From the sequence record DRR723986_643: 64,000 bases of DNA; one strand, given 5' to 3'. The translations under genes and the position numbers were made by a program. Below, one piece after another: positions 8,541-63,718 of this stretch. The notes under the pieces were generated by a model. The model was not told the origin of the DNA. It was given only the letters and a program-made list of their open reading frames with translations, and made no database searches. How positions within the stretch are numbered: position 1 is the first letter of the stretch; the number at the start of each line of letters is the position of its first letter.

Positions 8541-8558
8541 GGGGAATGTATTCCGAGG

Positions 8559-8945
8559 TCAGGCACGAAAAACCCAGAGACTGGAGACGAGAAAATTCCA
8601 GCTGATGACGCAGGCAAATGCAATCAGTTGTACCAACAGGTAGTTCCACTCGAGCCCCTCCACGCCTGCCTGCATAACACCGCCATTAAGAACAAAGCCC
8701 AGCGATATCATCACGATATACCGCGCCAGAGCCCGCCCGTGCGGCACCGGCGCAGCAAACGTCCAACTATAGTGCATCACATAATTCACGGCTACGGCGA
8801 ACAGGAAACCCACACTGCTGGCCAGCGCGGCTTGCAGGCCGACATACTCCACCAAAGCATACAGCACGCCATAATGCACCACGGCAGTGACCAGGCCGAC
8901 AACGCTAAACCTGAGCAACCGCCCGGCCTGCAGAAACTCCGCCAC
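8559..8945 (-). CDS. GtrA-family lipid-linked sugar translocase
   Basis: 128 aa, four TM helices, RFSVVG...NYVMHYSWTF...NFLVSSLWVF; directly upstream of the GtrB-like gene. Confidence 0.88.
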   Translation of the reverse strand: MAEFLQAGRLLRFSVVGLVTAVVHYGVLYALVEYVGLQAALASSVGFLFAVAVNYVMHYSWTFAAPVPHGRALARYIVMISLGFVLNGGVMQAGVEGLEWNYLLVQLIAFACVISWNFLVSSLWVFRA

Positions 8946-10667
8946 TCAGTTACGCACCCTGAAAACAAGAATGTCACCGACAAAGATCTGGAAGGTGCCA
9001 TACGCCCACTTGTGCAACACCAACTCCGGCATGAAGTTGCCGACCTCATAGCGCTGCACCAACTCCAGCGCGGGGTGCTCGTTCGCCACCGCCTGGCGAT
9101 AAAAACGGGTGTACGCCGGGGTGGTCTTGATCAGGCGTTCTGGTCGGCCGGTATAGGGACCATTGAGTTCATTGGCAAAAGCCGTGTCGTACCAGTTCTC
9201 ACTCAGCACCAGAAACTGCGCCTGGCGCAAATTGGCAGCATCGCCATCCGCATACTCGGGACGGAACAGCACGTGGTTCCGGGCAAAGTCCGCCGGCGGC
9301 GCAACATAGTAGGACATAAAGACCCGCTCGGGCTGTTCCTGCCGGTACCAGTCACGCAGGGCGACGCGCGGGTCGGTGTGGAAATCGCTGGCCAGGTCAT
9401 AGGCGAGGAGCGCCGGCCACAGCAGGAACAGGCCCAGCGCCCAGGGTTTCGAAGACCAGCGCAGTTCCCAGAACCCCAGCGCTGCCAGCAGGGCTGCTGC
9501 GGGAATAAGGGCCAGGTAGTGCCGGTAGTAGCTTACCGGCGCCAGGAAGGCCATGAACAGCAGGAACACCAGCACCGGCAGCAGGCACAGCCAGGCCCGG
9601 GCCCGCGATCTGTCGCGAACCAGGTAGCGAACGCCGGCGGGCAGGCAGGCGCAGGCGGGAATACCCAGCCCCACCACCAGCACCGCAACCACATTGAAAG
9701 GGTTGCGCAACCACTTGTTCCAGCCAATCGCCGCATAACCGGTACCGAAATTGCTGTCCATCTGGCCGGTGGTGAAATCAGCGAACAGGCCGACCCGGCT
9801 GAGCCCGAACGCCAGCAGCGGCACCGCCAGCCACAGGACGATCATGGGCCGCGGCACCTGACGCCAGGGAATGACCAGGTAAAACAGGGCCAGCAACGGA
9901 TACCACCCCGTGGCCTGGAACGCGCGGTTGGTGACCAGGCCGAACAACACACACAGCGCGAGCACCAGCAGCACCAGCCGCCGGCGGTCGAAACCCGTAG
10001 ACGCATATTCCCATGCGCGAACCGGAACAATCGAGGCGTAGGCGAACAGGGCAAACAGCCAGTACTTGGCCCAGACTGCCGGCACCAGCAATAGCGGACT
10101 CAACACCAGCAATGCGCGCTTGCCACGGGATACGGCGAATGCCAGCACCAACAGGAACAGATAGATATAGAACACCGAGGGCGCGTCCACCGTCCCGCTG
10201 TGGGATTCACTGAGGTGGAAGCCCGAGAACGCGAGTAAAGCCGCAGCGGTCAACCCTACCGACGGACGCCCCGGCACCAGCACCCAGCCCAACAGGCACA
10301 GCAAGAGCACAGTGGCCGCGCCGAGTACCGCGGAGTAGCTGCGCGCCACCAGAATATGGTCCGCACTGTGGCAAAAACCACGGGCGGCGGCCTGGTTGCC
10401 ATAGCTGCCGGGGGCAGGTTCGTGGCCGAGTGCAGCGGCAATCGCAAGGGTCTGGCGACCGATGAAGGTCGAGTAATCAAAGCCACCGAGGGCCGCGCGG
10501 CAGGAACCCGCCTCGTCGAAATTGATCAGGGTAAAACTGCCCGGACTATCCCAGTTCCAGCCGACAGTCTGGGCGCTGTAAAGTCGCGGCACCAGGGCCA
10601 GCACAAACACCAGGAGCAGCAAGGCCCAGTGGCGTGCGCCGATGTGAACGAACGAACTGCTGTGCAT
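8946..10667 (-). CDS. GT-C (ArnT/PMT-like) polyprenol-P-sugar-dependent glycosyltransferase
   Basis: DE motif after the first TM (INFDEAGS), many TM helices, soluble C-terminal domain; stop codon abuts the gtrA start. Confidence 0.7.
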   Translation of the reverse strand: MHSSSFVHIGARHWALLLLVFVLALVPRLYSAQTVGWNWDSPGSFTLINFDEAGSCRAALGGFDYSTFIGRQTLAIAAALGHEPAPGSYGNQAAARGFCHSADHILVARSYSAVLGAATVLLLCLLGWVLVPGRPSVGLTAAALLAFSGFHLSESHSGTVDAPSVFYIYLFLLVLAFAVSRGKRALLVLSPLLLVPAVWAKYWLFALFAYASIVPVRAWEYASTGFDRRRLVLLVLALCVLFGLVTNRAFQATGWYPLLALFYLVIPWRQVPRPMIVLWLAVPLLAFGLSRVGLFADFTTGQMDSNFGTGYAAIGWNKWLRNPFNVVAVLVVGLGIPACACLPAGVRYLVRDRSRARAWLCLLPVLVFLLFMAFLAPVSYYRHYLALIPAAALLAALGFWELRWSSKPWALGLFLLWPALLAYDLASDFHTDPRVALRDWYRQEQPERVFMSYYVAPPADFARNHVLFRPEYADGDAANLRQAQFLVLSENWYDTAFANELNGPYTGRPERLIKTTPAYTRFYRQAVANEHPALELVQRYEVGNFMPELVLHKWAYGTFQIFVGDILVFRVRN

Positions 10668-43513: not shown

Positions 43514-44353
43514 ATGTCCAGCCTAAGTGTATTCAGCAAGCAGCTGGCCCAGCTGATCCCCTCGGTCGGTACTGCGCAGTTCCCCGCCGAGCTGATCAAG
43601 ACCCTGGGGCTACTGGTTCCCGTGGAGGACGCCACGATCCTGGTTTACCCCCGGGGCGACCTGCCGGTGCTGGAGTATTTCCGGGTCAATAAGGAAACCG
43701 GCCGGACCACCCTGGATCGCTATCTGCAGGGCGCTTTCCTGCTGGATCCGTTCTACCTCGCTGCCCACCAGGACAAGCGCTTTGGCGTATTCCGGCTGCG
43801 CGACCTGTCGCCGACCGGTTTCCGGGATAGCGAGTATTACCGCAACTGGTACCGTAACTGCGGTTACCAGGATGAATGCGGCTACCTGTTTCCGCTCAAG
43901 GGCGGCGGCTTCGTGAATGTCGCGCTCGGCCGCACCCACCCCCGCGCGAGTTTCACCAAGACCCACTTCAGCCTGCTGGAGGATATCGCGCCGACCATTG
44001 AAACCCTGTGCCGCGCCCAGTGGGCAGAACCCGCCAGCCGCGGTACCGGACCCAACCTGCGCGCCCAGCTGCACAAGGCGCTGGACGCTTTCGGGTCCAG
44101 CCTGCTGACGGAGCGTGAATCCCAGGTGATCAACCTGGTACTGCACGGCCACAGCACCAAGACCGTCGCGGAGAAACTGTCCATCTCGATGGAGACCGTC
44201 AAACTGCATCGCAAGCACGCATACGCGAAGCTGGAGGTCAGTTCCCAGGCGGAGCTTTTCTACCTGTTCCTGGACTCCCTGATGAGCGCCCAGGACTATG
44301 AGGGCGGGGATACGCTGGTGGCCTATATGCAACCGCCCGCGTCGCGGCACTAG
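43514..44353 (+). CDS. LuxR-type HTH regulator with non-REC N-terminal ligand domain
   Basis: C-terminal LTERESQVINLVLHGHSTKTVAEKLSISMETVKLHRKHAYAKL; N-terminal domain with GAFLLDPFY. Confidence 0.88.
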   Translation: MSSLSVFSKQLAQLIPSVGTAQFPAELIKTLGLLVPVEDATILVYPRGDLPVLEYFRVNKETGRTTLDRYLQGAFLLDPFYLAAHQDKRFGVFRLRDLSPTGFRDSEYYRNWYRNCGYQDECGYLFPLKGGGFVNVALGRTHPRASFTKTHFSLLEDIAPTIETLCRAQWAEPASRGTGPNLRAQLHKALDAFGSSLLTERESQVINLVLHGHSTKTVAEKLSISMETVKLHRKHAYAKLEVSSQAELFYLFLDSLMSAQDYEGGDTLVAYMQPPASRH

Positions 44354-44401: not shown

Positions 44402-44563
44402 TAGTTTTCACCGATGCCATTGGTAAGGTTAAACAACACCGTTAACCCGGCACACCGGCGGACAGTCTGCGAAGGCAGGCTGGCGTGTTGACTGCGCGCC
44501 GCGATTGCCTGACGGAACGGAAAGCCGCGTTTGCCAACCCAACAGGACCCTGTCACTGACCGC

Positions 44564-46162
44564 ATGACGAAGGCTTCACCACAAGCTCCCGCGCCGTGGA
44601 TGCACAACGCGCTCAGGGAGGGCTTCGCCCATCTCGCCGCCGGCCGCTTTCGCGAGGCCGGCGAGTGCTGCCGCCGTTTGCTGGAAGCCAGGCCCGACCT
44701 GGTCGAGGCACATTTCCTGGTGGGGCTCATCGCCACCGAGTTGAAGCAGCGCTGGAACGCGGTCAGCGCTTTCGGGTCGGTGACCAAGCTGCAGCCCGAT
44801 CACGGCGCGGCCTGGGCCAACCTGGCCCGACTATTCATGCAGGCCGGGCAACCGGCACGAGCAACGGCCGCGCTGGAAAAAGCCGTGGCGCACCATGATG
44901 GTAATCCGCTGGTGCTCGATCTCATCGGCACGGTTTACGGCCTGCTCGGCGATCAGGTGGAAGCCGGCGAATGGGTTGGCCGCGCCCTGGAAAAGCAGCC
45001 GGACAGCATCCAGTTTCTGGTCAACCAGGCCAACAATCACATGTTCCTCGACCGGATGGACGAGGCTGAAGTCCTGCTCAACCGGGCACTGGAACTACGC
45101 CCCGGCAATCCGAACGCCCACTGGCTGCTCTCCGGCCTGAAAAAGGCGAGCAACCGGGAACATGTCGAGGTGCTCGAACAGCTGGTACAACAGGAGAACC
45201 GCAATCCGCGGGCGCTTGCCTTTCTTTACTACGGTATGGGCAAGGAACTGGAAGACCTCGAGGACTGGGACAAGGCCTTCGATGCCTTTGCCCGCGGCGC
45301 CAGCGCCCGGCGCAGCACCATTGAATTCGACGAGGCTGCCGAGATCGAGATGTTCGAGGCATTCGCCGCCACGTTCACCGAACAGTGGATGGCGCAGGCC
45401 GGCCCCGGACACGACGACCCTTCACCCATTTTTGTGGTGGGGCAGCCGCGCACCGGCACCACCCTGGTGGAGCGGATCATCACCAGCCACTCGCAGGTGC
45501 ATTCCGCGGGCGAGCTGAAGCAGTTCGGCAACTGCGTGCGCAGACTCTGTGATTACCGTGAGCAAAAGCCTTTCTCCGCCCGCCTGCCCGAACTCGCCGC
45601 AGGCATCGACCCGGACAAGCTCGGCAAATCCTATATGCAAACCACGGCCAGGCTGCGGGGCGAGCTGCCACGCTTTGTCGACAAGCTGCCCCCGAATTAC
45701 CTGTATATACCGCTGATCCTGCAGGCACTGCCCGGGGCGAAGATCGTGCACCTGAAGCGCGATCCGATGGACGCCTGCTTCGCCAGCTTCAAGCAGCTAT
45801 TCGCCGATGCCTACCCGCATTCCTATGACCAGCAGGAAATGGCACGCCACCACGCCCGCTACTACCACCTGATGGCGACCTGGCGCGAGCGTTTCGGCGA
45901 TCGCTTCATCGATATTTCCTATGAGGACACCGCCCGGGACCTGGAGCCCAACGCCCGCGCGCTGATCGACTTTCTCGGGCTGCCCTGGGAAGACGCCTGT
46001 CTCGACTTCCACAAGCAAAAGGCCGCAGTCACCACGGCCAGCGTCGTCCAGGTTAGACAGCCCGCGCACACCCGCTCAGTCGGCAGGTGGCGGCGCTACC
46101 AGGATCAGCTGTCGGTGATGCAGCAAACCCTGGAGCAGGAGGGTGTCCCGCTTGCGTACTGA
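44564..46162 (+). CDS. TPR-repeat PAPS-dependent sulfotransferase (TPST-like)
   Basis: N-terminal TPRs; 5'-PSB VGQPRTGTTLVE, FVDKLP, 3'-PB RDPMDACFAS, TASVVQVRQP; start uncertain (TTG 44531 alternative). Confidence 0.9.
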   Translation: MTKASPQAPAPWMHNALREGFAHLAAGRFREAGECCRRLLEARPDLVEAHFLVGLIATELKQRWNAVSAFGSVTKLQPDHGAAWANLARLFMQAGQPARATAALEKAVAHHDGNPLVLDLIGTVYGLLGDQVEAGEWVGRALEKQPDSIQFLVNQANNHMFLDRMDEAEVLLNRALELRPGNPNAHWLLSGLKKASNREHVEVLEQLVQQENRNPRALAFLYYGMGKELEDLEDWDKAFDAFARGASARRSTIEFDEAAEIEMFEAFAATFTEQWMAQAGPGHDDPSPIFVVGQPRTGTTLVERIITSHSQVHSAGELKQFGNCVRRLCDYREQKPFSARLPELAAGIDPDKLGKSYMQTTARLRGELPRFVDKLPPNYLYIPLILQALPGAKIVHLKRDPMDACFASFKQLFADAYPHSYDQQEMARHHARYYHLMATWRERFGDRFIDISYEDTARDLEPNARALIDFLGLPWEDACLDFHKQKAAVTTASVVQVRQPAHTRSVGRWRRYQDQLSVMQQTLEQEGVPLAY

Positions 46163-46189
46163 CGCAGTCAGGATTAACAGAGGCAACGG

Positions 46190-46205
46190 CGGCATACGTC
46201 TTGCA
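46190..46205 (+). promoter_or_regulatory. Candidate sigma54 (-24/-12) promoter for the TonB receptor-spdH unit
   Basis: CGGCATACGTCTTGCA: GG-N10-GC spacing with a TTGCA -12 element. Confidence 0.4.
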
Positions 46206-46319
46206 AGAAAATACGGTGGACCAGCGCTGCGAGCCGATTGCGGCACCGGTGCTTTCACGCTAGTCTCACCATACTAAGGCCGCGATTTGACGGCCAAACA
46301 GCCCAAACCCGGAGGGGAT

Positions 46320-48803
46320 ATGAACGACAACAACTGCCCACAAGCCAGAATATCCGGCCATACCGCATCCATCAGCAAGGCACGCACCACCGCCTCCACG
46401 CGCACAAGATTAGCGCAGGCCGTCTCGGTCGCGCTCCTTACTGGTGCAACGGCCGTACCAAGCTATGCACAGCAGCTCGAGGAAGTGATTGTCACCGCAA
46501 CCAAGCGGGCTGAGTCGGTCATGGATGTACCTATCGCCATTACCGCCATGTCAGGCGAATCGATCCGCGCGATCAACCTCAACGATATCAAGGACCTGAT
46601 TGCCTTCACCCCGGGAATCAGCGGCAACAGTAAGGACAGCTTCCTCGATTTCGTCAGCGTTCGCGGTATCCGCACGATTGATTTCGGCAACGGCGGCGAT
46701 CCGTCCGTCAGCCTGTACAAGAACGGCCTGTACCAGGGGCGTAACGGCTCTGCCGTCTCCAGTCTCTACGACGTTGAACGGGCCGAGGTCCTGCGTGGAC
46801 CGCAGGGCTTCCTGTTCGGCCGCAACTCGGTGAGTGGTGCGATGAACATCATCACCAACAAGCCGAATGTCTCCGAGACCGAAGGCTACGCCGAACTGGA
46901 TGTTGGTGAGCGCAACGTGCTGGTGTTCGAGGGTGGGGTCAATTTCCCGATCACCGATAACCTGGCGGTCCGGGTGGCGGGCTTCCACACGGAAGAAGAC
47001 GGCTATGTCGAGAACAGCTTCGGCGGACCTGACCTGATTAACCATGAAAACCAGGCCCTGCGGATCACCACGCGCTACGAATCGGACCGCATCACCGCTG
47101 ACCTGCTGCTGGAATATGAAGATCGGGACCAGTTCGGCTCTGTCTATCGCGCGACCGGCAAGGGCGAGGCGTTCACTGACGCACAGACCCGGATCAACGG
47201 CGGCGTGCCCATCGAACTCTCCCGGGATGGTCGCACGGTCAACAATGACAATTCCCTGCAGCCCACCGACCAGTCGGAAATTTTCTCCGTCGGCCTGCTG
47301 ATGGATATTGACCTGGGCTTTGCAACCCTGACCTCGCTGACCGGGTACAAGGATCACGACTACCAGTACGTTGAAGACTACGACGCACTGCCGACCATCA
47401 CCTTCAACTACGGACAGGACCAGAGCGGCGACTATTTCGAGCAGGAACTGCGACTCACCTCCAACGGTGATGGGCCGCTGGACTGGTACGCCGGTGCCTC
47501 CTACTACAAGGAAGACATCGACACCGTGTTCCTGGGCCAGCAGGAGGAAGACGTTTACTGCCTCGGCTACTGGTTCAATACCTGCCAGGACATGTTCGAC
47601 TACTACAACTACCTGGATTCCTACTACGGCAATACCTATTACTGCGATTACTACCTCGATTACTACTTCGGCAGCTGTGACTGGACCGCGTCGCCCACCG
47701 GCCTGATTAATGACCGCAACCGGATTAAGGGCAAGTATGAGGGCTACTCCACCTACGTGGACCTGAAGTACGCCTTCACCGAGAGTTTCGATATCGGTGT
47801 GGGTCTGCGTTACACCTATGACGAGAAAGAGTTCTCCCAGGAGGTCCTGGCAGATCCGGGTGGCTCGCTGCTGAACTTCAAGGTACAGACCGGCTTCTCC
47901 ACCCCTGAAGGGGCGCTGGAAGACAAGCAGGACTGGGATGAAATCACCTGGCGAGTGGTGGCCAACTGGCGTCCGGATGATGACTCGCTGATCTTCGGCA
48001 GCATCGCCACCGGCTACAAGCCCGGCGGCTTCGGCAGCTTCAATATCGAAGGCCCCGGCGCTGAGGCGTGTCCCTTTGGATTGTGCGTTGGCGTCCCCGG
48101 CTCGGAACTGCCCGGGGACTTTGGCCCGGAAACGGTGACCTCGTTTGAGGTTGGCTACAAGGGAACCCTGATGGATGGCAGGACCCAGGTCGCAACCACG
48201 GCATTCTACTACCAGTACGAGGACCTGCAGGCGATCTTCGGTGAAGGCCCGCGGACCATTGTCGACAACGTCGGCGAAGTCGATGGTTGGGGCATTGAGG
48301 CCGAGCTGAATACGGCCCTGACCGACAACTTCACCTTGCGCCTCGGCGCGTCGTGGTTCGATTCGGAAGCGAATGACGTGCAGGCGTTCTGCGGTGCCGG
48401 TGAAGTGATTACCGGTTCAGCCGATGCCTGTGAAGGCAACTCGATTCCCTGGGCCCCGGAATACACCGCGTTTGCCGTGCTCAATGCCAACTTCCCGATC
48501 GGCGACAACGGCGGCGAGGCCTTCGGTACGCTGTCCTGGACCTGGGAAGACGACTACCGCGGCGACTGGCCGGATCCGAGCGTGATCTACCAGCGCATCG
48601 AAGCGGTCAACCAGACGGACTTCATTATCGGTTACCGCCAGGAGTCGTGGCACGTCAGCGCCTACGTTGAGAACGTGTTTGATGACGTGTGGTACGACGG
48701 CGCCTACTCCGATGACCCGACCCCGGGTACCATCTTCGTCCAGCACACCTTCGGCCCGGCCCGTCCGCGGACGGCCGGGGTTAGACTCGGCTACGAGTTC
48801 TGA
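46320..48803 (+). CDS. TonB-dependent receptor with Tyr/Asp/Cys-rich insert
   Basis: Signal peptide, TonB box LEEVIVTATKR, plug EVLRGPQGFLFGRN, C-terminal RTAGVRLGYEF; ATG 46320 follows GGAGGGG. Confidence 0.95.
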   Translation: MNDNNCPQARISGHTASISKARTTASTRTRLAQAVSVALLTGATAVPSYAQQLEEVIVTATKRAESVMDVPIAITAMSGESIRAINLNDIKDLIAFTPGISGNSKDSFLDFVSVRGIRTIDFGNGGDPSVSLYKNGLYQGRNGSAVSSLYDVERAEVLRGPQGFLFGRNSVSGAMNIITNKPNVSETEGYAELDVGERNVLVFEGGVNFPITDNLAVRVAGFHTEEDGYVENSFGGPDLINHENQALRITTRYESDRITADLLLEYEDRDQFGSVYRATGKGEAFTDAQTRINGGVPIELSRDGRTVNNDNSLQPTDQSEIFSVGLLMDIDLGFATLTSLTGYKDHDYQYVEDYDALPTITFNYGQDQSGDYFEQELRLTSNGDGPLDWYAGASYYKEDIDTVFLGQQEEDVYCLGYWFNTCQDMFDYYNYLDSYYGNTYYCDYYLDYYFGSCDWTASPTGLINDRNRIKGKYEGYSTYVDLKYAFTESFDIGVGLRYTYDEKEFSQEVLADPGGSLLNFKVQTGFSTPEGALEDKQDWDEITWRVVANWRPDDDSLIFGSIATGYKPGGFGSFNIEGPGAEACPFGLCVGVPGSELPGDFGPETVTSFEVGYKGTLMDGRTQVATTAFYYQYEDLQAIFGEGPRTIVDNVGEVDGWGIEAELNTALTDNFTLRLGASWFDSEANDVQAFCGAGEVITGSADACEGNSIPWAPEYTAFAVLNANFPIGDNGGEAFGTLSWTWEDDYRGDWPDPSVIYQRIEAVNQTDFIIGYRQESWHVSAYVENVFDDVWYDGAYSDDPTPGTIFVQHTFGPARPRTAGVRLGYEF

Positions 48804-48876: not shown

Positions 48877-50742
48877 ATGAAACATAGGATTTCCCGCCGC
48901 GACTTCGTCAGCGGCATAGCCCTCGGTGCGGCAGGACTCCATCTATCGCCCCTGGAGGCGGTGGCACAAGGTTTGCTGCCGGCATCGAGCATTGGCCCGG
49001 ATTATTACCCACCGGCACTGACCGGAATTCGAGGCAGTCACGCCGGTTCCTTCGAAGTCGCCCATGCGGTAGCGCGCGAAGGCAGGTCCTTTCCGCTACC
49101 CAAGCAGGTGAGCGAACAGGTTTACGACCTGGTCGTCGTGGGCGCCGGCATCTCCGGCCTGTCCGCGGCCAAGTTCTTCCGTGACCGTCACGACAGTGAC
49201 AGCCGGATCCTGGTACTGGACAACCACGACGATTTCGGCGGCCATGCGCGCCGCAACGAACTGGATGTCGACGGGCAGACCCTGCTCGGTTATGGCGGCA
49301 GCCAGACCATCGACAATCCCTCCGCTTACTCGCCGGTAGCGAAACAGCTGCTGCGGGACGTTGCGATCGACACCGATCGCTTTTATGACTACTTCGACCA
49401 GACTTTCTTCAGCCGACGCAATATGACGGCGGGCCTGTACTTCGACCCGGCAAGCTATGGCCGGCACCAGATCGTCGCCAACCCGATTGAGGCGGATGGG
49501 CTGACGCCGGAGCAGCTGGAAGCCGCAGTACGGGCCATGCCCATACCACCGGAAGACCAGACGGCCTTCCTCACCCTGCTGGCAGGGGGCGTGGATTACC
49601 TGGCAGGTAAAAGCCTGGCGGAGAAGGAAGCCCTGCTGCGCAATATCAGCTATCTCGACTACCTTGAGCAGTACGCCGGCGTTCCCGCGTCAGTGCGTGA
49701 GATCCTGCGCGATTCCTTCCTGCCGATGATTGGTGTGGGCTGGGAAGCAGCTTCCGCCTGGGAGGCGCTGGAATACCAGTTCCCCGGCACGGCAGATCTG
49801 GGGGGTGGCGTGCACCACGAACGTTCTGAACCCTACATCCATCACTTCCCCGACGGCAATGCCGGCGTCGCGCGATCCCTGGTCCGCGATCTGATTCCGG
49901 AGGCCATGCCAGGCAAGAGCATGGAAGACCTGGTTACCACCCGGGCCAACTACGCGGCGCTGGACCGCGAGGGATCGCCAGTCAGGGTGCGCCTCAACAG
50001 CACCGTGGTGCAGGTACGCAACAGCGTCGACGGCAGCGGGGTTGACGTCACCTACGTCAACAAGGGCAATGCCTACCGGGTGCGCGCCAGGCACGTGGTG
50101 ATGGCCTGCTACAACGGGATCATCCCGCATATCTGCCCGGAGGTACCCGAGGCACAGGCGTCAGCGATCCGCTACGCCACCAAGATACCCTTCGTGATCG
50201 GCAGCTTTGCCATCCGTAACTGGCAGGCCTTTGCCGACGCGGGCTATTACATGCTGTACACCCCGGGCGACGTGCTGTTCAAGCGTATGCGGCTGGACTT
50301 CCCGGTAAGCATGGGCGACTACCAGTTTGCGCAGAAGCCCGACCAGCCGATCGTGATTTCCGCCTGGCACTCGCCGACCGCCCGTGGCCTGCCGAACATG
50401 CAGCAGTACAAGGCGGGTCGCGCAAAGCTGCTGCAGATGAGCTACACGGATTTTGAGCAGGACATTTTCTCCCACATGGACGGCATGCTGGGCCCGCACG
50501 GATTTGACGCGGAGCGGGACATCGCGGCCATCACCCTGAACCGCTGGCCCCACGGCTATGCCTACGAGTTCGAGGGGATCGGGGTGCCCGCAGAATATGA
50601 CCGCTATAACGGCCCGCACATCGCGGGGCGAGCGCAAATCGGCCGCATATCCATCGCTAACTCGGATTCCGAGGCCTATGCTTATGTCGACGGCGCGATC
50701 GATGCAGCCTCCCGCGCGGTGAATGAGCAGCTCGCGATTTAG
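48877..50742 (+). CDS. spdH: Tat-exported flavo(hemo)protein, spermidine dehydrogenase-like
   Basis: SRRDFV Tat motif; YYPPALTGIRGSHAGSFEVAH, VVGAGISG, DNHDDFGGHARRNE, HFPDGNA, NRWPHGYAY, matching the Pseudomonas SpdH family as I recall it. Confidence 0.8.
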   Translation: MKHRISRRDFVSGIALGAAGLHLSPLEAVAQGLLPASSIGPDYYPPALTGIRGSHAGSFEVAHAVAREGRSFPLPKQVSEQVYDLVVVGAGISGLSAAKFFRDRHDSDSRILVLDNHDDFGGHARRNELDVDGQTLLGYGGSQTIDNPSAYSPVAKQLLRDVAIDTDRFYDYFDQTFFSRRNMTAGLYFDPASYGRHQIVANPIEADGLTPEQLEAAVRAMPIPPEDQTAFLTLLAGGVDYLAGKSLAEKEALLRNISYLDYLEQYAGVPASVREILRDSFLPMIGVGWEAASAWEALEYQFPGTADLGGGVHHERSEPYIHHFPDGNAGVARSLVRDLIPEAMPGKSMEDLVTTRANYAALDREGSPVRVRLNSTVVQVRNSVDGSGVDVTYVNKGNAYRVRARHVVMACYNGIIPHICPEVPEAQASAIRYATKIPFVIGSFAIRNWQAFADAGYYMLYTPGDVLFKRMRLDFPVSMGDYQFAQKPDQPIVISAWHSPTARGLPNMQQYKAGRAKLLQMSYTDFEQDIFSHMDGMLGPHGFDAERDIAAITLNRWPHGYAYEFEGIGVPAEYDRYNGPHIAGRAQIGRISIANSDSEAYAYVDGAIDAASRAVNEQLAI

Positions 50743-56241: not shown

Positions 56242-57462
56242 TTAATTGCCCTGGATTTCCGGCGGCGGCGTCGCCCGCGCTCTTGCCGGGGCCCAGAAGG
56301 GCTGGTCCCTGACCGTGCAAAGCGCCACCTTGCGATAGTAGCGAAGTTCCTTCCGGTAGTAGATCTCGGCCCAGATAGCACCAGACAGGGCGGCGGTTTC
56401 GACCATCGCCAGCGCGATATTGGCTTTCACCGCCGGTGACCACATGGCGGATGTGATGTAGCCGATCTCCTTGCTGCAGGACTTGCTGCTATAAAGAATC
56501 GCGTCATCTGCCGGCTTGTTGCCCTCGATGTCCAGCTTCACCAGGGTAAATCGCGGCCCCCGCTCACGTTCCTCGAGCAATGCCCTGCGGCCGTTGAAGT
56601 GGGGCTTGCTGAAATCCACCAGCCAGCCCAGGTTCAACTCGTAGGGCGTCTGGTCATGCTGGAAGTGGATTGTTTTCAGCGCCTCCGAGAATTCCATATC
56701 GGGCATGATGAACCCCGCTTCCATGCGCGCCATATTGGTCGCCGCCTCGCCGTAGGGGTGAATGCCGTGGTGCTCACCCGCTGCATACAGGGCGTCCCAC
56801 AAGGCCAGTGCCTGCGCGGGCTCAATCCACAGTTCGTAACCCAGATCGCCGGTGAAACCGGTGCGGGACACCATCAGCTGCTCTCCATTGAACGGGAAAT
56901 GCATAACGCCAAAGGGTTTCAGGTTCTCGATACCCTCCAGGCCCATGGCCTTGAGGGTGGCGCAGGAGGTCGGGCCCTGCAGCGACAGGGCGGCAATCCG
57001 GTCGCTCATATCGACCACAGTGAGATCGTCAAAGCCGCAAGCGCTCTTGCGCAGCCAGGCCAGGCAGGGGCTGCCACAGGTGAGCATGAACCGGTCCTCG
57101 CCGAGGCGGAAAATCGTCCCGTCGTCGACCATACGACCCTCATCGGTACACCAGCACACGTAGGTCACCCGGTCGATCGCCAGTTTGCCCAGGTCGCGGG
57201 TGACCATGCGATCAAGCATCGCCAGGGCGTCGGGGCCACTCACATAGTATTTCTGCATGGGGCAGATATCGTAGGTCCCGCAGGTATTACGAATGCAGAA
57301 GTACTCGTAGCCGGCGTCGTAGTAGTAGTCGGCGAACTTGTAGCCGTTCCAGGACGACCAGGCATCACGCAGGTTCAGCGGCGCCTGTCGCGGGTGAAAA
57401 TGCGACAGCCGCAAACGCTCACCGGCAAAGGGATCATCCTGCCGTGCGCCATCACTCGTCAT
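56242..57462 (-). CDS. GcvT-like THF-dependent aminomethyltransferase/demethylase
   Basis: DICPMQKY, GRMVDDGTI, LQGP, SRTGFTGDLGYELW, ARMEAG, GYITS; ATG 57462 is 9 nt after GGAGG and overlaps the upstream stop. Confidence 0.88.
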   Translation of the reverse strand: MTSDGARQDDPFAGERLRLSHFHPRQAPLNLRDAWSSWNGYKFADYYYDAGYEYFCIRNTCGTYDICPMQKYYVSGPDALAMLDRMVTRDLGKLAIDRVTYVCWCTDEGRMVDDGTIFRLGEDRFMLTCGSPCLAWLRKSACGFDDLTVVDMSDRIAALSLQGPTSCATLKAMGLEGIENLKPFGVMHFPFNGEQLMVSRTGFTGDLGYELWIEPAQALALWDALYAAGEHHGIHPYGEAATNMARMEAGFIMPDMEFSEALKTIHFQHDQTPYELNLGWLVDFSKPHFNGRRALLEERERGPRFTLVKLDIEGNKPADDAILYSSKSCSKEIGYITSAMWSPAVKANIALAMVETAALSGAIWAEIYYRKELRYYRKVALCTVRDQPFWAPARARATPPPEIQGN

Positions 57463-59071
57463 AGCAATCATCCTCCGGCACGGTGTTGGGCCGCTTCAGG
57501 TCGAGCAGGATTTCCCGGGCCGCATTCGCACCGCAGGCAGAGGAAACGCCACCGCCGGGGTGGGTCGACGAACCGCACATATACAGGTTCTTGACCGGCA
57601 TACGGTACTGCCCGTAACCCGGGAAGGGGCGGTTGAACAGCAACTGGTCGATGGTCAGTTCGCCCTGGAAGATGTTGCCTTCGGTGAGCCCGATCTCGTT
57701 TTCAATCTCGTGCGGCGTGCGCACCTCCATGTGGACGATAAGGTCCTTGAAGCCAGGGCTGTGACGCTCGATCTTGTCGATCACTGTCTGCCCGAACTGG
57801 TCCCGCTTCTCCGGCGTCCACGGACCATCCGCCAGCTCCGGCGGACAGTACTGGATAAAGTTGGACATCCAGTGCTTGCCGACCGGCGCCACCGTGGGAT
57901 CCCAGGCCGAGGGAATGATCGACTCGATGAACGGATCCTCCGACCAGCGCCCGCGTTTCCAGCAGTCGTAGGCACGCTCCATGGTCTCCAGGGAGCCGAC
58001 GAAGGTCTGTCCGCCACGGTTGATATAGCGGTTGTCCGGCAGACTGCTGAATGTCGGCAGGCCCGAGAGCGCAATATTGACCTTGCCGGAAGAGCCGCGG
58101 ATCTTGAAATTGCTGGCCCGCTCATAAATGCCGGGGGGCACATCCGCCTTGTCCATGACCCGGGTGAAGGTGCGCCGCGCGTCGAGGTTGGATACCACGA
58201 TCCGGGCCTGGATCTCATCGCCGTTCTCCAACGCCACCCCGACCGCCTGGCCGTTCCTCACCAGAATCTGCCGCACTCCCGACCCGGTACGTAGCTCGCC
58301 GCCCGCGGCCTGCAGAGCGCCGGCGAGCGCCTTGGAGATCGCGCCCATGCCACCCCGGGCCAGACCCCAGGCGCCGACATTGCCGTCGACATCGCCCATC
58401 ACGTGGTGCAACAGGATGTAGGCGGAGCCGGGCGAGTACACCCCCAGGGCGGTGCCGATAATGCCCGGACTGGCCATGGCCGCCTTGATCAGGTCGTTCT
58501 CGAAATAATCATCGAGGAAGTCGGCGGCGCTCATGGTGAAAAAGCGCACGTACTCGTAGAGTTCGCGTTCGCCCAGGGACCAGAACTCACGGGCGAGAAA
58601 CAGCAGTTCACGAATATCCCGCGGCCTGAAAGAGCTGGGGTCCGGCGGGGTACGCAACAGGGTCTTGCGAATCAGCTGCGCGTAACGACCGAGGTCGGCC
58701 TGAAAGCGGGCCATGGCATCCGCGTCATGCGGCGAGTGGCGCTTCAGTTCGAGGTAGCTGGCGGCCTCGGTCGGATAGTCGATCAGGGTCTTGCCATCGT
58801 GGCCGAAGGCCACTGTTCCAAGATAGGGGACCAGCAACAGACCATGCCTGGCCAGGTCGAGATCGCGGTGAATGGCCTGGCGCATCATGCTGCACACGTA
58901 GGAGCAGCTGGAATAAAACCAGCCTTCCTGCAGCTCGCGGGTCACCGCCGCACCACCGATATAGTCGTTCTTCTCCACCACCAGGACGTCGAGACCCGCC
59001 CTGGCCAGGTAGGCAGCATTGGTCAGGCCATTGTGGCCTGCACCGACGACAATGGCGTCATAGCGCTTCAC
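57452..59071 (-). CDS. PYROXD2/phytoene-dehydrogenase-like FAD oxidoreductase (paralog 3)
   Basis: GTG 59071 in a GTGA overlap; GAGHNGL, GGMG, GNIFQGEL, LYMCGSSTHPGGGV. Confidence 0.88.
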   Translation of the reverse strand: MKRYDAIVVGAGHNGLTNAAYLARAGLDVLVVEKNDYIGGAAVTRELQEGWFYSSCSYVCSMMRQAIHRDLDLARHGLLLVPYLGTVAFGHDGKTLIDYPTEAASYLELKRHSPHDADAMARFQADLGRYAQLIRKTLLRTPPDPSSFRPRDIRELLFLAREFWSLGERELYEYVRFFTMSAADFLDDYFENDLIKAAMASPGIIGTALGVYSPGSAYILLHHVMGDVDGNVGAWGLARGGMGAISKALAGALQAAGGELRTGSGVRQILVRNGQAVGVALENGDEIQARIVVSNLDARRTFTRVMDKADVPPGIYERASNFKIRGSSGKVNIALSGLPTFSSLPDNRYINRGGQTFVGSLETMERAYDCWKRGRWSEDPFIESIIPSAWDPTVAPVGKHWMSNFIQYCPPELADGPWTPEKRDQFGQTVIDKIERHSPGFKDLIVHMEVRTPHEIENEIGLTEGNIFQGELTIDQLLFNRPFPGYGQYRMPVKNLYMCGSSTHPGGGVSSACGANAAREILLDLKRPNTVPEDDCYDE

Positions 59072-60609
59072 TTGAGGATCTCCCGCGCGGCATTGTGCCC
59101 GGGGCCTCCCATCAGGCCACCACCGGGGTGGCAACCCGCGCCACAAAGATACAGACCAGGAATCGGCGTGCTGTACTGCGCCGCTTCGTAGGTGGGGCGC
59201 ATCATCAGCAGCTGGTCGACGGCAAACTCCGTGTGATGCCAGTGACCACCGGTCACATGGTGCGTCGCCTCCAGGTCAGCGGGCGTCAGCAGCTCGGCCT
59301 GCAGCACCAGGTCGCCCAGGCCAGGCGAATACTCTTCCAGGGTGGCCATGACCCGCTCGGTCAGCCGGGCGCGGGCCTCCTCGGTCCAGCCGCCCTTCAA
59401 CCGGGCCGGTACATACATGATGTGGGCAGACAGCACATGCTGTCCCGGTGGCGCCAGTGACGGGTCGTGCAGGCTGGGAATCAGCAGCTCCAGCACCGGG
59501 TTCTCGGAGCACTGCCCGTACTTGGCGTCGTCAAAGGCAAACTCTATGGCATCGGGCTCGGGTGCAATGATCATCCGGCCGTCGGCTCGCTCCAGTCCGG
59601 GAAAGCGGGGCAGGTCCCGCAGGGCCAGGTGCAGCTTGGCCACATAACCTTCGCAGCGCAGGCGCTGGATGCGGTTGGTAAATTCGATTTCCAGGTGACG
59701 CGCGCCTACCAGTTGCAGGAAGGTCCGCTGCGGGTCGGCGGAAGACACCACCCGCTGCGCCTGAATCCGCTCGCCGTCAGCCAGCTCAACCCCGGTCGCC
59801 CGCAAACCCTGCTCGTCGCCAGCAACAAGGATTCGCGACACGGGGGTAGAAAAACGCAGCTCCGCACCGGCCGCGGTCGCCGCGGCCTGCAGGGCACCGA
59901 CCAGGCCCTCGATGCCGCCGGCGGGCACGCTGTGCAGGCCGCGATGTTCTCCCAGCATCCGGTACAACAGCGCGAACACCGGGCTGTTGGGCGAGCGCGG
60001 CGCCAGCTTCGACCCGATGAGCCCGTCCCAGCTGAGCGCAGCCTGCAGACGCTTGTTATCGAAGTTTTCATCCATGAGGTCGCGCATCGGCAAGGTGGCT
60101 ACCCGCAGGAATTCAAGCATGTCCGCCTTGCCCAGCATCCGCAGCCTCAGACCCAGCTTGCCGAAAGTAAGCAGTTCGCCGGCGCTGTTATTGCCAATGC
60201 GCGGCATGGTCCTGGTCCAGAAGGGCTGCAGGGCGCGAGCAAACTTTTTCAGCGACTCGCGATAGCGCGGGTATGTAGCTGCGTCCTCATCGCCAACCCC
60301 GGTAACCCGGGAGTCCTCAATCACGATGTGCTCACCGGCGGGGTCGAGGGCCACAGTGGCCAGCGCCGGCCCTGGCTGGTAACCGTGGGCGGCCAGCTTC
60401 AATTCAGCTGCGACCTGCGGTGAGAACTGGTTGACGCTGTGGGCGACCGACGCCCGAAAGCCGGGATGGAATTCCCGGGTCGACGCCAGGCCACCGGCCA
60501 TGGCTGCGGCCTCCAGCACCAGCACCCGCTGTCCCTGTCCGGCAAGGTAGGCGGCACAGATGAGCCCGTTGTGGCCGGCGCCGATAACAATCGTGTCGTA
60601 GCTGTTCAT
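59068..60609 (-). CDS. PYROXD2/phytoene-dehydrogenase-like FAD oxidoreductase (paralog 4, divergent)
   Basis: GAGHNGL, EFHPGF, FDDAKYG, GGHWHHTE, LYLCGAGCHPGGG; ATG 60609. Confidence 0.88.
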   Translation of the reverse strand: MNSYDTIVIGAGHNGLICAAYLAGQGQRVLVLEAAAMAGGLASTREFHPGFRASVAHSVNQFSPQVAAELKLAAHGYQPGPALATVALDPAGEHIVIEDSRVTGVGDEDAATYPRYRESLKKFARALQPFWTRTMPRIGNNSAGELLTFGKLGLRLRMLGKADMLEFLRVATLPMRDLMDENFDNKRLQAALSWDGLIGSKLAPRSPNSPVFALLYRMLGEHRGLHSVPAGGIEGLVGALQAAATAAGAELRFSTPVSRILVAGDEQGLRATGVELADGERIQAQRVVSSADPQRTFLQLVGARHLEIEFTNRIQRLRCEGYVAKLHLALRDLPRFPGLERADGRMIIAPEPDAIEFAFDDAKYGQCSENPVLELLIPSLHDPSLAPPGQHVLSAHIMYVPARLKGGWTEEARARLTERVMATLEEYSPGLGDLVLQAELLTPADLEATHHVTGGHWHHTEFAVDQLLMMRPTYEAAQYSTPIPGLYLCGAGCHPGGGLMGGPGHNAAREILK

Positions 60610-60702
60610 TGAGGGGCGCACCGGCCTGACCTTGATACCGCACAGGCTAACGGCGCCCGCCTCCGGGAACAAGCGCCGCCGAGGGACGGACTATTTTCCC
60701 GC

Positions 60703-62745
60703 TCAGGCAACGGCCGCCACGTCGACTGTACAGTCGTAGTAACAGGCGCCACCGGCGAGATCGGCCTTGTGTCCGGGGATCAGTGCGTTGATGGTCTGCC
60801 CGGTCGGGCTCTCGGCGATCCACGCTCCCTTGGGAACGAACAGGGTGCCGGTCCTGACCCGGTCAGATATCTGCAGTGGCAGATGCACTTCTCCCAGATC
60901 GTTGAACAAGCTCACCTGCACGCCCTGCTCCAGCCCGAGGGAGTCGGCGTCCGCAGGATGCATTTCACAGACCAGGTCCTTGTCGTGTCGCGCTACGCCA
61001 CCCAGGGTCGAGTTGATGCGCCGCTCGGAGGCGGGGCTGACCACGACAAAACGGCGTGCGGACCGGAGCTCGCGAAACCCCGGCAGACCCTGGCCGCACT
61101 CGGCCTCAAGCGCCGCGCTGTACAGCTCGATCCTGCCGCTGGGCGTGGCCGGCGGCAGGCCGCGAAGCAGCCCAGGCGGCGAAACTGCCGACATATCCAG
61201 TGCGCTGTCCGTCGGCAGCTCACTGGGACGCAGGCCACCGAGAGCCGGTGCATCCGGCTCAATGGCCTGGTCCATCAGCGCTGCATCGGAGTCACGAAAG
61301 CAGGCTTCCTCAAAACCAAACCGAGCCGCCAGCCTGCGGAACAGTTCGGTATTGGGCAAGGCCTCACCTACCGGCGCCAGCACGGGGGCGGATCGCTGCA
61401 GGTAATGATGGCCGTAGGCTTTGTACAGATCACCGTATTCCAGGTGACTTGCCGCCGGCAGGATGACGTCGGCACAGGCCATGGAATCCGTCATGCTGAG
61501 ATCCGATCCGACCACGAACAGCGACTCATCCAACAGCGCGGCGCGCATCCCGCGCTGGCGTGGGTGTACCGCAACCGGGTTGTGGTTATAGATGAAGACG
61601 GCTTTCACCGGGATCGCGTCACCCGGGTCCCCGATATGGTCCGGCAGATCGAGGACATTGAACTCGCGCAGTCCCGGCGGAGCCAGGTCAGGGCGACTGA
61701 GGGCTTCCGAGGCCACCGGGAAATACCCGGAGACATCGCAGACCCCGGCGCCGGGCTCGCCAAAATTCCCGGTGAGCGCCGGCAGCGCGAACAAGGCGCG
61801 CAGGCCAGAGCCACCATTGCGATTGCGTTCCGGTGCGACACCCACGGAAATCGCCGCGGGGCTGAGTTCCCGCCAGTAGCGCGCGAACTGGTAGATATCC
61901 TCCACCGCCAGCCCACAGAGTGCGGCCGCTCGCTCCGGCGGGTACTGCGCTGCCCGGTCGAGGAATTCGCGCGCGCCCAGCACATGCTCTGCGATGAAGC
62001 TGTCGTCCAACCCGCCCTCCTGCTCCAGCAGGGCCGCCACCGAATACGCCAGCACCACGTCGGTGCCCGGCATGACCGGCAGGTGCAGGTCAGCAGTTTC
62101 GGCAATGCGGGTGCGCTTGGGGTCGACCACCACCAGGCGGGCACCCCGCTTGCGGGCATCGCGCAGCAGGGTAGTCAGGTGCAGGTTGCAGGCGGTGATA
62201 TTGTTACCCCAGACCACAATCAATCGCGAATGCGCGAGCTCGGCATAAGAGATGCCACCAACCTCACCGAACACGCTGTCCCAGGCCGCGCTCGATGCCC
62301 CGGTGCACAGGGGCGTGGAGTCCACCTTGCTGGCACCGAGACGGTTGAAGAAGCGCTGGTCCATGGACCCGCCCGCCAGCAGCCCCATCGGACCGCCATA
62401 GGTCAGAGGCGCGATCGCCTCGCTGCCATATTCCCCAATGATCTGCTGAAAGCGCTCGTACACAGTATCCAGGGCCTGCTCCCAGGATACCGGGCGAAAA
62501 GCCATCGCGCCCTTGGGCCCGTCGCGCAGCAACGGGGTCAGCAGTCGCTGGGGGCCGTGGACCAGTTCCGGCAGGCCCTCGGCCACCTTGGCGCAGATCT
62601 TGCCGCGGGTGAAGGGGTTCGCATGACTGCCGCGGACGCGGTCTACCTTGCCATCGACGACATCGATCGACAGGCTGCAGGTGTCCGCACAATCGAGGGG
62701 ACACACGCTGGGCAGGCTGGTGGCGACGGGCTCGGCGGATGACAT
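60703..62745 (-). CDS. Cytoplasmic molybdopterin (bis-MGD) oxidoreductase with N-terminal [4Fe-4S] cluster
   Basis: CPLDCADTC...GKICAK, VWGNN, VDP, PGTD, ADVILPAA, INST, EMHPADA; no signal peptide. Confidence 0.88.
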   Translation of the reverse strand: MSSAEPVATSLPSVCPLDCADTCSLSIDVVDGKVDRVRGSHANPFTRGKICAKVAEGLPELVHGPQRLLTPLLRDGPKGAMAFRPVSWEQALDTVYERFQQIIGEYGSEAIAPLTYGGPMGLLAGGSMDQRFFNRLGASKVDSTPLCTGASSAAWDSVFGEVGGISYAELAHSRLIVVWGNNITACNLHLTTLLRDARKRGARLVVVDPKRTRIAETADLHLPVMPGTDVVLAYSVAALLEQEGGLDDSFIAEHVLGAREFLDRAAQYPPERAAALCGLAVEDIYQFARYWRELSPAAISVGVAPERNRNGGSGLRALFALPALTGNFGEPGAGVCDVSGYFPVASEALSRPDLAPPGLREFNVLDLPDHIGDPGDAIPVKAVFIYNHNPVAVHPRQRGMRAALLDESLFVVGSDLSMTDSMACADVILPAASHLEYGDLYKAYGHHYLQRSAPVLAPVGEALPNTELFRRLAARFGFEEACFRDSDAALMDQAIEPDAPALGGLRPSELPTDSALDMSAVSPPGLLRGLPPATPSGRIELYSAALEAECGQGLPGFRELRSARRFVVVSPASERRINSTLGGVARHDKDLVCEMHPADADSLGLEQGVQVSLFNDLGEVHLPLQISDRVRTGTLFVPKGAWIAESPTGQTINALIPGHKADLAGGACYYDCTVDVAAVA

Positions 62746-62794
62746 GGCACGGACTCCCTGTTGTCGAGCTTACTACTATAGCCCAGGACGGGGT

Positions 62795-63718
62795 TCAGCC
62801 GCTGGCGCGCATGTGCAGAAACTGCAGCGCCAACGACGCCCCGGCAAGCGCGGTGATATCCGCATGATCGTAAGCGGGGGACACCTCAACCACATCGAAG
62901 CCAACAATATTGAGGTGCGACAAGCCCTCGAGGATGCGCAGGGCCCGCGAGGTGGACAAACCGCCTACCACCGGCGTGCCGGTGCCGGGCGCAAAGGCCG
63001 GATCCAGGCAATCGATATCAAAGGTCAGGTAAGCCGGGCGTTCGCCGACCCGGCTGCAAATGGCCTCCACTATCGCTGCCACCGAGGATTCATTGGCCTG
63101 ATGGGCGTCGATAACCTGGAAGGCGTGGTTGGCACGGTCGTAGTCCGTGCGAATGCCAATCTGGATCGAGTGCGCCGGATCGATAAGCCCCTCCCTCGGC
63201 GCCCGGTGGAACATGCAGCCGTGGCTGTACTTTTCTTCCTCATCGTAGGTGTCGGTGTGCGCATCGAAGTGAATCAGCGCCAGCTCGCCATGAGTCTGTG
63301 CAGTGCCGCGCAGCAGCGGCAGGGTAACGAAGTGATCGCCCCCCAGCGCCACCAGGGTCTTGCCCGCCCCGGTGATCCGGGCTGCGTGGGCCTCAACCCG
63401 GGCGAGCATGTCCTCTGAATCGCCAAACAGGAACTGCACATCGCCATAGTCCGCCACCCGCAGCCTGTCGGCGAGGGCGAAATCCCAGGGCCAGCGCTTG
63501 TCTTCCCAACGCAGGTTAGCGCTGGCCTGGCGTATACCGGTGGGACCGCTGCGGGTGCCCGCGCGCCCGCTGGTGCCCAGGTCATAGGGTACGCCCATCA
63601 CGAAGGCGTCCAGCTCCGGATCATCGACATCGCGACTCAGGGGCAGGCCCATAAAACCAAAGACGTTGGCATACATCGAGTATTCGCTGCCCGGAAAATC
63701 GCTCTCGGAATCCCTCAC
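62795..63718 (-). CDS. speB: Agmatinase (ureohydrolase family)
   Basis: GVPYD, GPTGIRQAS, GGDHFVT, HFDAHTD, SHG, FDIDCLDPAFAPGTGTP, DVVEVSP. Confidence 0.88.
   Translation of the reverse strand: MRDSESDFPGSEYSMYANVFGFMGLPLSRDVDDPELDAFVMGVPYDLGTSGRAGTRSGPTGIRQASANLRWEDKRWPWDFALADRLRVADYGDVQFLFGDSEDMLARVEAHAARITGAGKTLVALGGDHFVTLPLLRGTAQTHGELALIHFDAHTDTYDEEEKYSHGCMFHRAPREGLIDPAHSIQIGIRTDYDRANHAFQVIDAHQANESSVAAIVEAICSRVGERPAYLTFDIDCLDPAFAPGTGTPVVGGLSTSRALRILEGLSHLNIVGFDVVEVSPAYDHADITALAGASLALQFLHMRASG

Follow-up and report, generated by a model that had tools for sequence, protein, structure and literature searches.

The window analysed here, a 64,000-nt stretch of DNA from sequence record DRR723986_643, contains a gene for a protein that combines tetratricopeptide repeats (TPRs) with a 3'-phosphoadenosine-5'-phosphosulfate (PAPS)-dependent sulfotransferase domain, followed directly by a gene for a TonB-dependent receptor with a tyrosine-rich insert (Table 1). 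We found that the two genes form a conserved pair, that the catalytic domain is nearer in sequence to tyrosylprotein sulfotransferases (TPSTs) than to other sulfotransferase classes among solved structures, and that receptors partnered with such enzymes are enriched in tyrosine clusters. We tentatively propose that the receptor is sulfated before its export, with the tyrosine cluster of extracellular loop 5 as the likeliest site, and we put the chances of this a little below even. The initial annotation of this DNA had already placed a TPR-sulfotransferase gene directly 5' of a receptor gene carrying the motifs FDYY, DSYY, CDYY and LDYY, and this arrangement was confirmed by the open reading frames (ORFs), by Pfam and by AlphaFold2 (AF2) models.

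The enzyme is encoded on the plus strand by ORF 44531-46162, with its ATG at 44564. Pfam Sulfotransfer_3 (PF13469) matched residues 299-488 over profile positions 1-216 of 216 (E 2.3e-47; 162.5 bits against a cut-off of 27), and many TPR families matched residues 25-255. The protein is laid out as a TPR solenoid at about residues 11-280 (about 270 residues), followed by a catalytic domain at about residues 285-530. The AF2 model (predicted local distance difference test (pLDDT) score 84.6, predicted template modelling score (pTM) 0.85) was soluble, with a helical TPR solenoid from residue 11, and the N-terminus had no hydrophobic stretch, signal peptide or membrane segment. Because the N-terminus lacks a hydrophobic stretch and the modelled solenoid starts at residue 11, the predicted location of the enzyme is the cytoplasm. 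Its N-terminal half matched designed TPRs, O-GlcNAc transferase (OGT), SPINDLY (SPY) and PEX5, all of which are peptide- or protein-binding solenoids. Foldseek with the full enzyme model returned TPR proteins only, and the link to TPSTs thus comes from sequence profiles.

In a single-sequence search, the enzyme matched the CurM sulfotransferase in part and TPST2 across the full domain (E 1.4e-5). The PRTGTT of the enzyme aligned on PRSGTT of TPST2, and an enzyme Glu aligned on the second Glu of TPST2 GEET, which we take to be the catalytic base Glu99. We built a catalytic-domain profile from 18 domains (14 orthologues and 4 paralogues) and searched it against the PDB. The results showed that its best solved relatives were TPSTs (2e-19 to 8.5e-15 overall; 8w5z, 2e-19; TPST1, 2.4e-18; TPST2, 6e-15), followed by the CurM sulfotransferase (3.8e-12) and then by cytosolic SULTs (SULT4A1) at 3e-7 or worse. 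TPST1 and TPST2 of animals and plants (PDB 5wrj, 3ap1 and 8w5z) matched profile positions 7-234 of 255 with E values of 2e-19 to 7e-15, and they share with the enzyme the 5'-phosphosulfate loop PR(S/T)GTT, an RD..S region, the Glu aligned with GEET and a C-terminal S..QV..P. The motif P-R-x-G-x-T-L, a Glu 21 residues past the Arg, and the R..P/D..C/F motifs were invariant in the 18 diverse domains, and this invariance of the PAPS-binding and catalytic motifs indicates that catalysis is under selection. Adenosine 5'-phosphosulfate (APS) kinase, which makes PAPS, was found in 5/5 related genomes. In genome G005 the single APS kinase adjoins a TPR-sulfotransferase in a 507-aa frame, with a TonB receptor about 1.7 kb off (G005:C1:2149928-2156280), and in genome G001 the APS kinase sits after a short sulfotransferase. 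Related marine bacteria carry 12-36 Sulfotransfer_3 matches per genome, in long and short forms, these paralogue counts being taken from related genomes and not from the window's own genome.

The receptor is encoded on the plus strand by ORF 46287-48803, with its ATG at 46320, and its residue numbers are counted here from the TTG at 46287. Pfam matched the Plug domain (E 2.4e-15) and the TonB-dependent barrel (E 1.9e-29), and the protein fell under the cut-off of every NCBIfam receptor model, that for TonB-dependent siderophore receptors included (TIGR01783, 137.3 bits versus 223.5), and by a wide margin for all models of named receptors. The AF2 receptor model, built on 62 sequences, had a mean pLDDT of 67.7, with the barrel at about 80-90 and the plug below 50, which is low confidence. 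The best Foldseek match was FyuA (4epa, 19% identity), and FoxA and FhuA were found as well (E 1e-24 to 1e-29 for the three); these are generic receptor matches at no more than 19% identity and give no inference as to the cargo. Pfam, AF2 and Foldseek agree in assigning the protein to the TonB-dependent transporters, which have a plug within a 22-strand barrel. The motifs FDYY, DSYY, CDYY and LDYY lie at residues 437, 444, 453 and 457 (nt 47595-47666), inside an insert of residues 421-466 that holds 13 Tyr, 8 Asp/Glu, 4 Cys and no Lys, Arg or His. The richest 40-aa window of this receptor contained 13 Tyr, compared with a median of 5 and a maximum of 9 in 113 control receptors, which were drawn from three related genomes and do not adjoin a TPR-sulfotransferase. 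The tyrosine density of the insert is beyond chance.

Residues Y424, C425, Y428, C433, L457 and Y460 were invariant in 121/121 aligned homologues, and F437, D438, Y439 and Y440 were retained in 96-99% of them. Because the insert is conserved across these 121 homologues, it is a feature of the family and not a peculiarity of one genome. C453 and C464 were both present in 80 homologues and both absent in 41, with no mixed case, a co-occurrence that is the sequence signature of a disulfide. In the AF2 model, residues 421-461 formed three short helices (pLDDT 82-91) between strands 398-420 and 473-496. In the TonB-receptor fold the first strand runs outward from the periplasm. When strands are numbered from the plug, the insert is the fifth odd-to-even connection; even-to-odd connections span 3-5 residues, the length of periplasmic turns. 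The strand count and the short even-to-odd turns thus place the insert in extracellular loop 5, of which it is modelled with confidence as a helical, probably disulfide-stapled part.

We scanned one genome per species and obtained 26 loci, 24 of them orthologous, with receptors 47-83% identical. A TPR-sulfotransferase adjoined the receptor in 24/24 orthologous loci, upstream on the same strand in 23/24 and downstream in 1 (L023), and no TPR-sulfotransferase was found in the flanks of the two loci whose receptors were 26-27% identical. The other neighbours varied: a relative of the amine-oxidase-like gene was present in the flanks of 9/24 loci and a LuxR gene in 5/24 (L004, L005, L006, L022 and L023), and no inner-membrane transporter, exporter or biosynthetic gene was conserved with the pair in the flanks of the 24 loci. 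Luminiphilus syltensis NOR5-1B has a tandem of two sulfotransferase-receptor modules (L017:1451-10460). The second pair is divergent (enzyme 34% and receptor 25% identical to those of the window), and its receptor has a Cys-bracketed, Tyr-rich stretch of its own at a different place.

Three related genomes of about 10.8 Mb gave 46 Sulfotransfer_3 matches and 125 Plug matches, which is about one receptor per 85 kb. We retained 34 Sulfotransfer_3 matches of at least 39 bits, dropping the 12 weakest of the 46 (all at 38 bits or less), and dropped 1/125 Plug matches (a 27-bit partial match in a 2278-aa frame). Sulfotransferases in frames of at least 500 aa lay under 700 nt from a receptor frame in 11/15 cases and at 1.7-3.3 kb, with one or two genes between, in 3/15, while none of the 19 shorter sulfotransferases was closer than 3.4 kb to a receptor. 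The difference between 11/15 long and 0/19 short forms indicates that adjacency goes with the long N-terminal (TPR) part. The one remaining long sulfotransferase (L152:2987-8550, genome G005) had its nearest receptor 32 kb away. Its gene shares 4 nt with the end of a gene for a 1086-aa subtilase (S8), an overlap suggesting that its translation is coupled to that of another protein, which may be exported.

As a wider and independent sample, 80 loci at 35-77% identity were recovered from metagenomes with the catalytic-domain alignment, and 4/92 neighbour frames were left out of the survey of their neighbours. A receptor directly adjoined the enzyme in 33/80 loci and lay 0.7-3.5 kb away in 6/80. 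Pfam searches of the other 47 loci showed an autotransporter directly adjoining in 4 (L179, L194, L203 and L233) and one or two genes off in L183 and L195, together with single loci in which a TpsA-type exoprotein (L221), a TolC-like protein (L216) or a phosphoesterase-family protein (L226) adjoined the enzyme. In 32/80 loci, including many with short flanks, no such partner was seen. Flanks of at least 1.5 kb on each side were available in 35 loci, and in these the direct neighbour was a receptor in 19, an autotransporter in 3 and a TpsA protein in 1 (23/35), and of the remainder 3 had a partner nearby and 9 had none. Five related genomes carry 0-3 autotransporters each, so that the autotransporter neighbours are not chance. 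The partners share export to the cell surface, not cargo, which points to exported proteins as the partners of the enzyme. Next to the TPR-sulfotransferases of two loci (L227:80-3384 and L228:5678-9729) are genes for a TPR-fused Asp/Asn beta-hydroxylase and for a TPR-fused methyltransferase, a hint that TPRs guide a broader range of modifying enzymes. At L208:1261-7804, two TPR-sulfotransferase genes flank a gene of the tryptophan-halogenase family. Two soil-type loci (L168:3415-7487 and L172:356-4123) have UbiA-family and COX15/CtaA genes, probably for heme O and heme A synthesis, after the TPR-sulfotransferase and no outer-membrane protein.

On a FastTree phylogeny of 89 sulfotransferase domains, partner class required 12 changes, against a minimum of 10 and a shuffled mean of 21.5, for 11 partner states on 32 labelled rows, a setting in which kinship alone yields some clustering. 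The autotransporter-linked enzymes formed one group, and the TpsA- and TolC-linked enzymes fell within the wider clade that holds it. Inherited synteny, with no direct functional link between the genes, would explain the adjacency if shared descent were enough, and both the kinship effect on the tree and the origin of many loci from related lineages (Halieaceae and Woeseiaceae) are in its favour. We nevertheless regard it as very improbable. The pair persists while all other neighbours change, and in L023 it does so with its gene order reversed; 11 receptor families less than 35% identical to one another take part in it, and it is found again in the tandem duplicate of L017; and its rate of adjacency is far above that expected from one receptor per about 85 kb.

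We also compared tyrosine clusters between receptors with and without an adjoining enzyme. The richest 40-aa window held a median of 8 Tyr in 11 adjoining receptors and of 5 in the 113 others (Mann-Whitney p 6e-5), and 18/25 complete partnered receptors from the metagenomes reached at least 7 Tyr per 40 aa. Clustering of 149 receptors at 35% identity gave 88 families, with controls from three genomes only; metagenome receptors shorter than 600 aa were dropped before this clustering and before the comparison of window composition. A median of at least 7 Tyr was found in 6/11 partnered families versus 4/77 control families (Fisher p 1.4e-4). The genomic correlation between the insert and an adjoining TPR-sulfotransferase, which the initial annotation had proposed, was thus positive both by locus (24/24) and by family. 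Tyr-rich windows contained 1.6 basic residues versus 2.4 in control windows, and 0.89 Cys versus 0.07.

We propose that the gene pair would be a dedicated protein-modification module. The cytoplasmic enzyme would use PAPS to O-sulfate one or more tyrosines of the newly made, unfolded receptor precursor, which the TPR solenoid would hold during sulfation. The sulfated receptor would then leave the cytoplasm through Sec, acquire two disulfides by oxidation and enter the outer membrane. Modification would have to precede Sec export, because the receptor is present in the cytoplasm solely as an unfolded precursor and PAPS is cytoplasmic. The likeliest target would be the Tyr-rich, acidic, base-free segment destined for extracellular loop 5, where sulfate groups would give an aromatic lid above the ligand entrance a fixed negative charge. 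That charge might help to capture ligands such as the polycations named in the initial annotation, or sulfation might mask a site used by phages. We infer here the receptor as substrate, tyrosine as acceptor, the sites modified and the cellular role of sulfation.

Several points weigh against this proposal. For every family member, sulfation is a prediction from sequence and models, and we know of no demonstrated Sec export of a sulfated protein. No Tyr cluster was present in 5/11 partnered receptor families. Clusters were also absent from partners of the autotransporter, TpsA and TolC-like kinds, whose richest 40-aa windows held 3-6 Tyr. An acidic residue before Tyr, which the initial annotation had taken as the sign of a sulfation site, failed as a general signature, since [DE]Y was not enriched (p 0.5), and Tyr-rich windows were slightly less acidic than control windows (5.4 versus 6.2 residues). 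A shared loop position was likewise rejected, the clusters of the other partnered families lying in other loops. Since the model shows the insert as ordered and helical, and its Cys pairs co-vary, structure or ligand binding may account for its conservation. A paralogue in genome G001, 53% identical, retains the insert with no sulfotransferase within 50 kb. The closest relatives after the TPSTs are sulfotransferases of the CurM type, whose substrates are small molecules bound to an acyl carrier. Kin share synteny, so that the adjacency counts are not all independent events. On the 3' side of the G001 paralogue (L151:8548-12966) lie a Na+/H+-antiporter-family gene and a gene for an EutQ-like cupin, which belongs to the same Pfam family (Cupin_3) as the cupin 3' of the window receptor. 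The idea that the receptor itself is the substrate, put forward in the initial annotation, is therefore supported in part: adjacency, Tyr-cluster enrichment, the TPST-like domain and the surface-protein partners speak for it, and the partners without clusters, the paralogue without an enzyme and the possibly structural insert speak against it.

The same observations would fit an enzyme that is tied to outer-membrane proteins without sulfating the loop, modifying another residue or envelope component, or using its TPRs to hold or escort precursors, with the insert unrelated. Partners lacking Tyr clusters, the insert-bearing paralogue with no enzyme nearby and an insert modelled as ordered and disulfide-stapled would all be expected in that case, and the TPR-fused hydroxylase and methyltransferase genes at L227 and L228 suggest that TPR-guided chemistry is varied. 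We consider this decidedly unlikely, given that the PAPS-binding and catalytic motifs are invariant in the 18 domains, a sign that catalysis is selected, and that Tyr clusters are enriched at the family level in partnered receptors.

A further alternative is that the enzyme sulfates a small molecule or peptide tied to the cargo of the receptor, either a secreted scavenger that is taken up again or an imported compound that is conjugated, and that the Tyr-rich loop is a ligand-binding lid. Receptors are often encoded beside enzymes for their cargo. The CurM sulfotransferase is a close relative of the enzyme (E 3.8e-12), and the neighbours in the window look catabolic (a flavin amine-oxidase-like exported protein, a cupin, a CrtO-like oxidoreductase and a sodium:solute symporter). 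At L154:4233-11988 (genome G004), two genes, for a sulfatase and an FMN-dependent dehydrogenase, separate the TPR-sulfotransferase from a TonB receptor, and this sulfatase could hint at a sulfate-ester cycle on a small molecule. Against this, only the enzyme and the receptor are conserved, and no transporter, exporter or biosynthetic genes travel along with them. Adjacency tracks the fusion to TPRs, a protein-binding module (11/15 versus 0/19), and TPSTs rank above small-molecule sulfotransferases in the profile search. The same type of enzyme also stands beside autotransporters, TpsA and TolC-like proteins, none of which are importers, and these neighbours argue against the imported small-molecule substrate that the initial annotation had offered as its alternative. 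A protein substrate fits better than an imported small molecule because of the TPST-type domain, the solenoid that adjacency tracks, the surface-exported partners and the absence of a conserved transporter, exporter or precursor-peptide gene. We regard the small-molecule explanation as unlikely, though deserving of attention.

In the usual view, tyrosine sulfation belongs to the secretory pathway of eukaryotes, and TPSTs are type II membrane-anchored enzymes of the Golgi lumen that modify proteins already in that pathway. Unlike them, the window enzyme is unanchored, would have to work in the cytoplasm on a protein still to be exported, and carries about 270 TPR residues that TPSTs lack. RaxST is, to our knowledge, the only characterised bacterial case of tyrosine sulfation. 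RaxST of Xanthomonas oryzae is a cytoplasmic TPST-type enzyme that sulfates RaxX before its export (PMC6637879, PMC4892823), and it is reported to sulfate the outer-membrane protein Omp1X (PMC4892823). The window enzyme resembles RaxST as a bacterial cytoplasmic enzyme of TPST type, with a ribosomally made substrate sulfated before export, which for the window pair is our proposal. Unlike the RaxST-RaxX-RaxAB system, the window showed no gene for a RaxX-like precursor in the spacers and none for a peptidase-ABC exporter among the 45 ORFs scanned, and unlike RaxST its enzyme is fused to TPRs and has a TonB-dependent receptor as conserved partner. The text of Liu et al. (PMC6637879) describes raxST homologues of about RaxST length in varied contexts, with unknown substrates. 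TonB and TPR go unmentioned in the texts of PMC6637879 and of the review PMC9372746, and a full-text literature search returned no paper that links TPR-sulfotransferases to TonB receptors or to autotransporters.

Two further groups of enzymes offer partial parallels. OGT and SPINDLY likewise join a transferase domain to a TPR superhelix at the N-terminus, and among natural proteins their TPRs gave the closest matches, in sequence and in structure, to the N-terminal half of the enzyme; they differ in catalytic fold and in chemistry, which is glycosyl transfer. In OGT, Asn at repeat position 6 forms a substrate-binding ladder. We rejected an OGT-type Asn ladder for the window TPRs, in which only two repeats carry this Asn. 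In the TibC/TibA and AAH/AIDA-I systems, cytoplasmic heptosyltransferases are encoded beside an outer-membrane protein and modify it before Sec export. These systems provide a precedent for the order of events, and TPR-sulfotransferases likewise adjoin autotransporters; they differ in that Ser/Thr residues are heptosylated and no TPR-sulfotransferase takes part. We know of no such autotransporter-type heptosylation system for TonB-dependent receptors.

The G+C content of the 64-kb window was 58-67%, and the nearest named relatives of the receptor belong to Halieaceae and Woeseiaceae, which are marine Gammaproteobacteria. LysR- and LuxR-type regulators lie 5' of the pair. On its 3' side are the genes for the flavin amine-oxidase-like protein, the cupin and the CrtO-like oxidoreductase, with the sodium:solute symporter on the opposite strand. 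Neither a terminator-like nor a promoter-like site was found in the spacer at 46163-46319, and GGAGGGG precedes the receptor ATG. The small ORFs of the spacers were spurious Arg/Pro-rich frames, with no gene for a Tyr-rich or RaxX-like peptide, and no ABC or HlyD family was found among the 45 window ORFs scanned with Pfam. Farther off, the minus strand at 56242-63718 carries a GCV_T aminomethyltransferase gene, two further flavin amine-oxidase-like genes, a molybdopterin oxidoreductase gene and an arginase-family gene, a run that looks like an amine or guanidino-compound catabolic cluster. The ORFs at 5820-7523 (567 aa) and 8226-10094 (622 aa) had no Pfam match at E of 1e-5 or less.

Table 1. 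Features of the conserved gene pair and its immediate surroundings in the window.
Feature	Position	Strand	Basis
TPR and PAPS-sulfotransferase, 532 aa from ATG	44564..46162	+	Pfam Sulfotransfer_3 and TPR families
Spacer between sulfotransferase and receptor, 157 nt	46163..46319	+	Sequence; ribosome-binding site before ATG 46320
TonB-dependent receptor, 827 aa from ATG	46320..48803	+	Pfam Plug and barrel, AF2 barrel
Tyr-rich, Cys-bracketed receptor insert, aa 421-466	47547..47684	+	Composition; AF2 extracellular loop 5
LuxR/GerE-type regulator, upstream; context, outside the conserved pair	43514..44353	+	Pfam GerE
Flavin amine-oxidase-like protein, twin-arginine-type N-terminus SRRDFV	48877..50742	+	Pfam Amino_oxidase, NAD_binding_8

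Beyond this one pair, the enzymes may form a widespread class of TPR-guided cytoplasmic tyrosine sulfotransferases in Proteobacteria, each dedicated to the Sec-exported surface protein encoded next to it, whether a member of one of the TonB-receptor families, an autotransporter or a TpsA protein. Outer-membrane proteins would then carry sulfotyrosine on their surface loops, in the present case on a disulfide-stapled, Tyr-packed lid of loop 5 facing a ligand or a phage. We hold this broader proposal as possible and rather more doubtful than even. TonB-dependent receptors dominate nutrient uptake in such bacteria. If the proposal is true, it would reveal an unrecognised covalent modification on bacterial outer-membrane proteins, through which ligand capture, phage and bacteriocin recognition and surface charge could change, and it would give a function to many genes annotated just as TPR or sulfotransferase.

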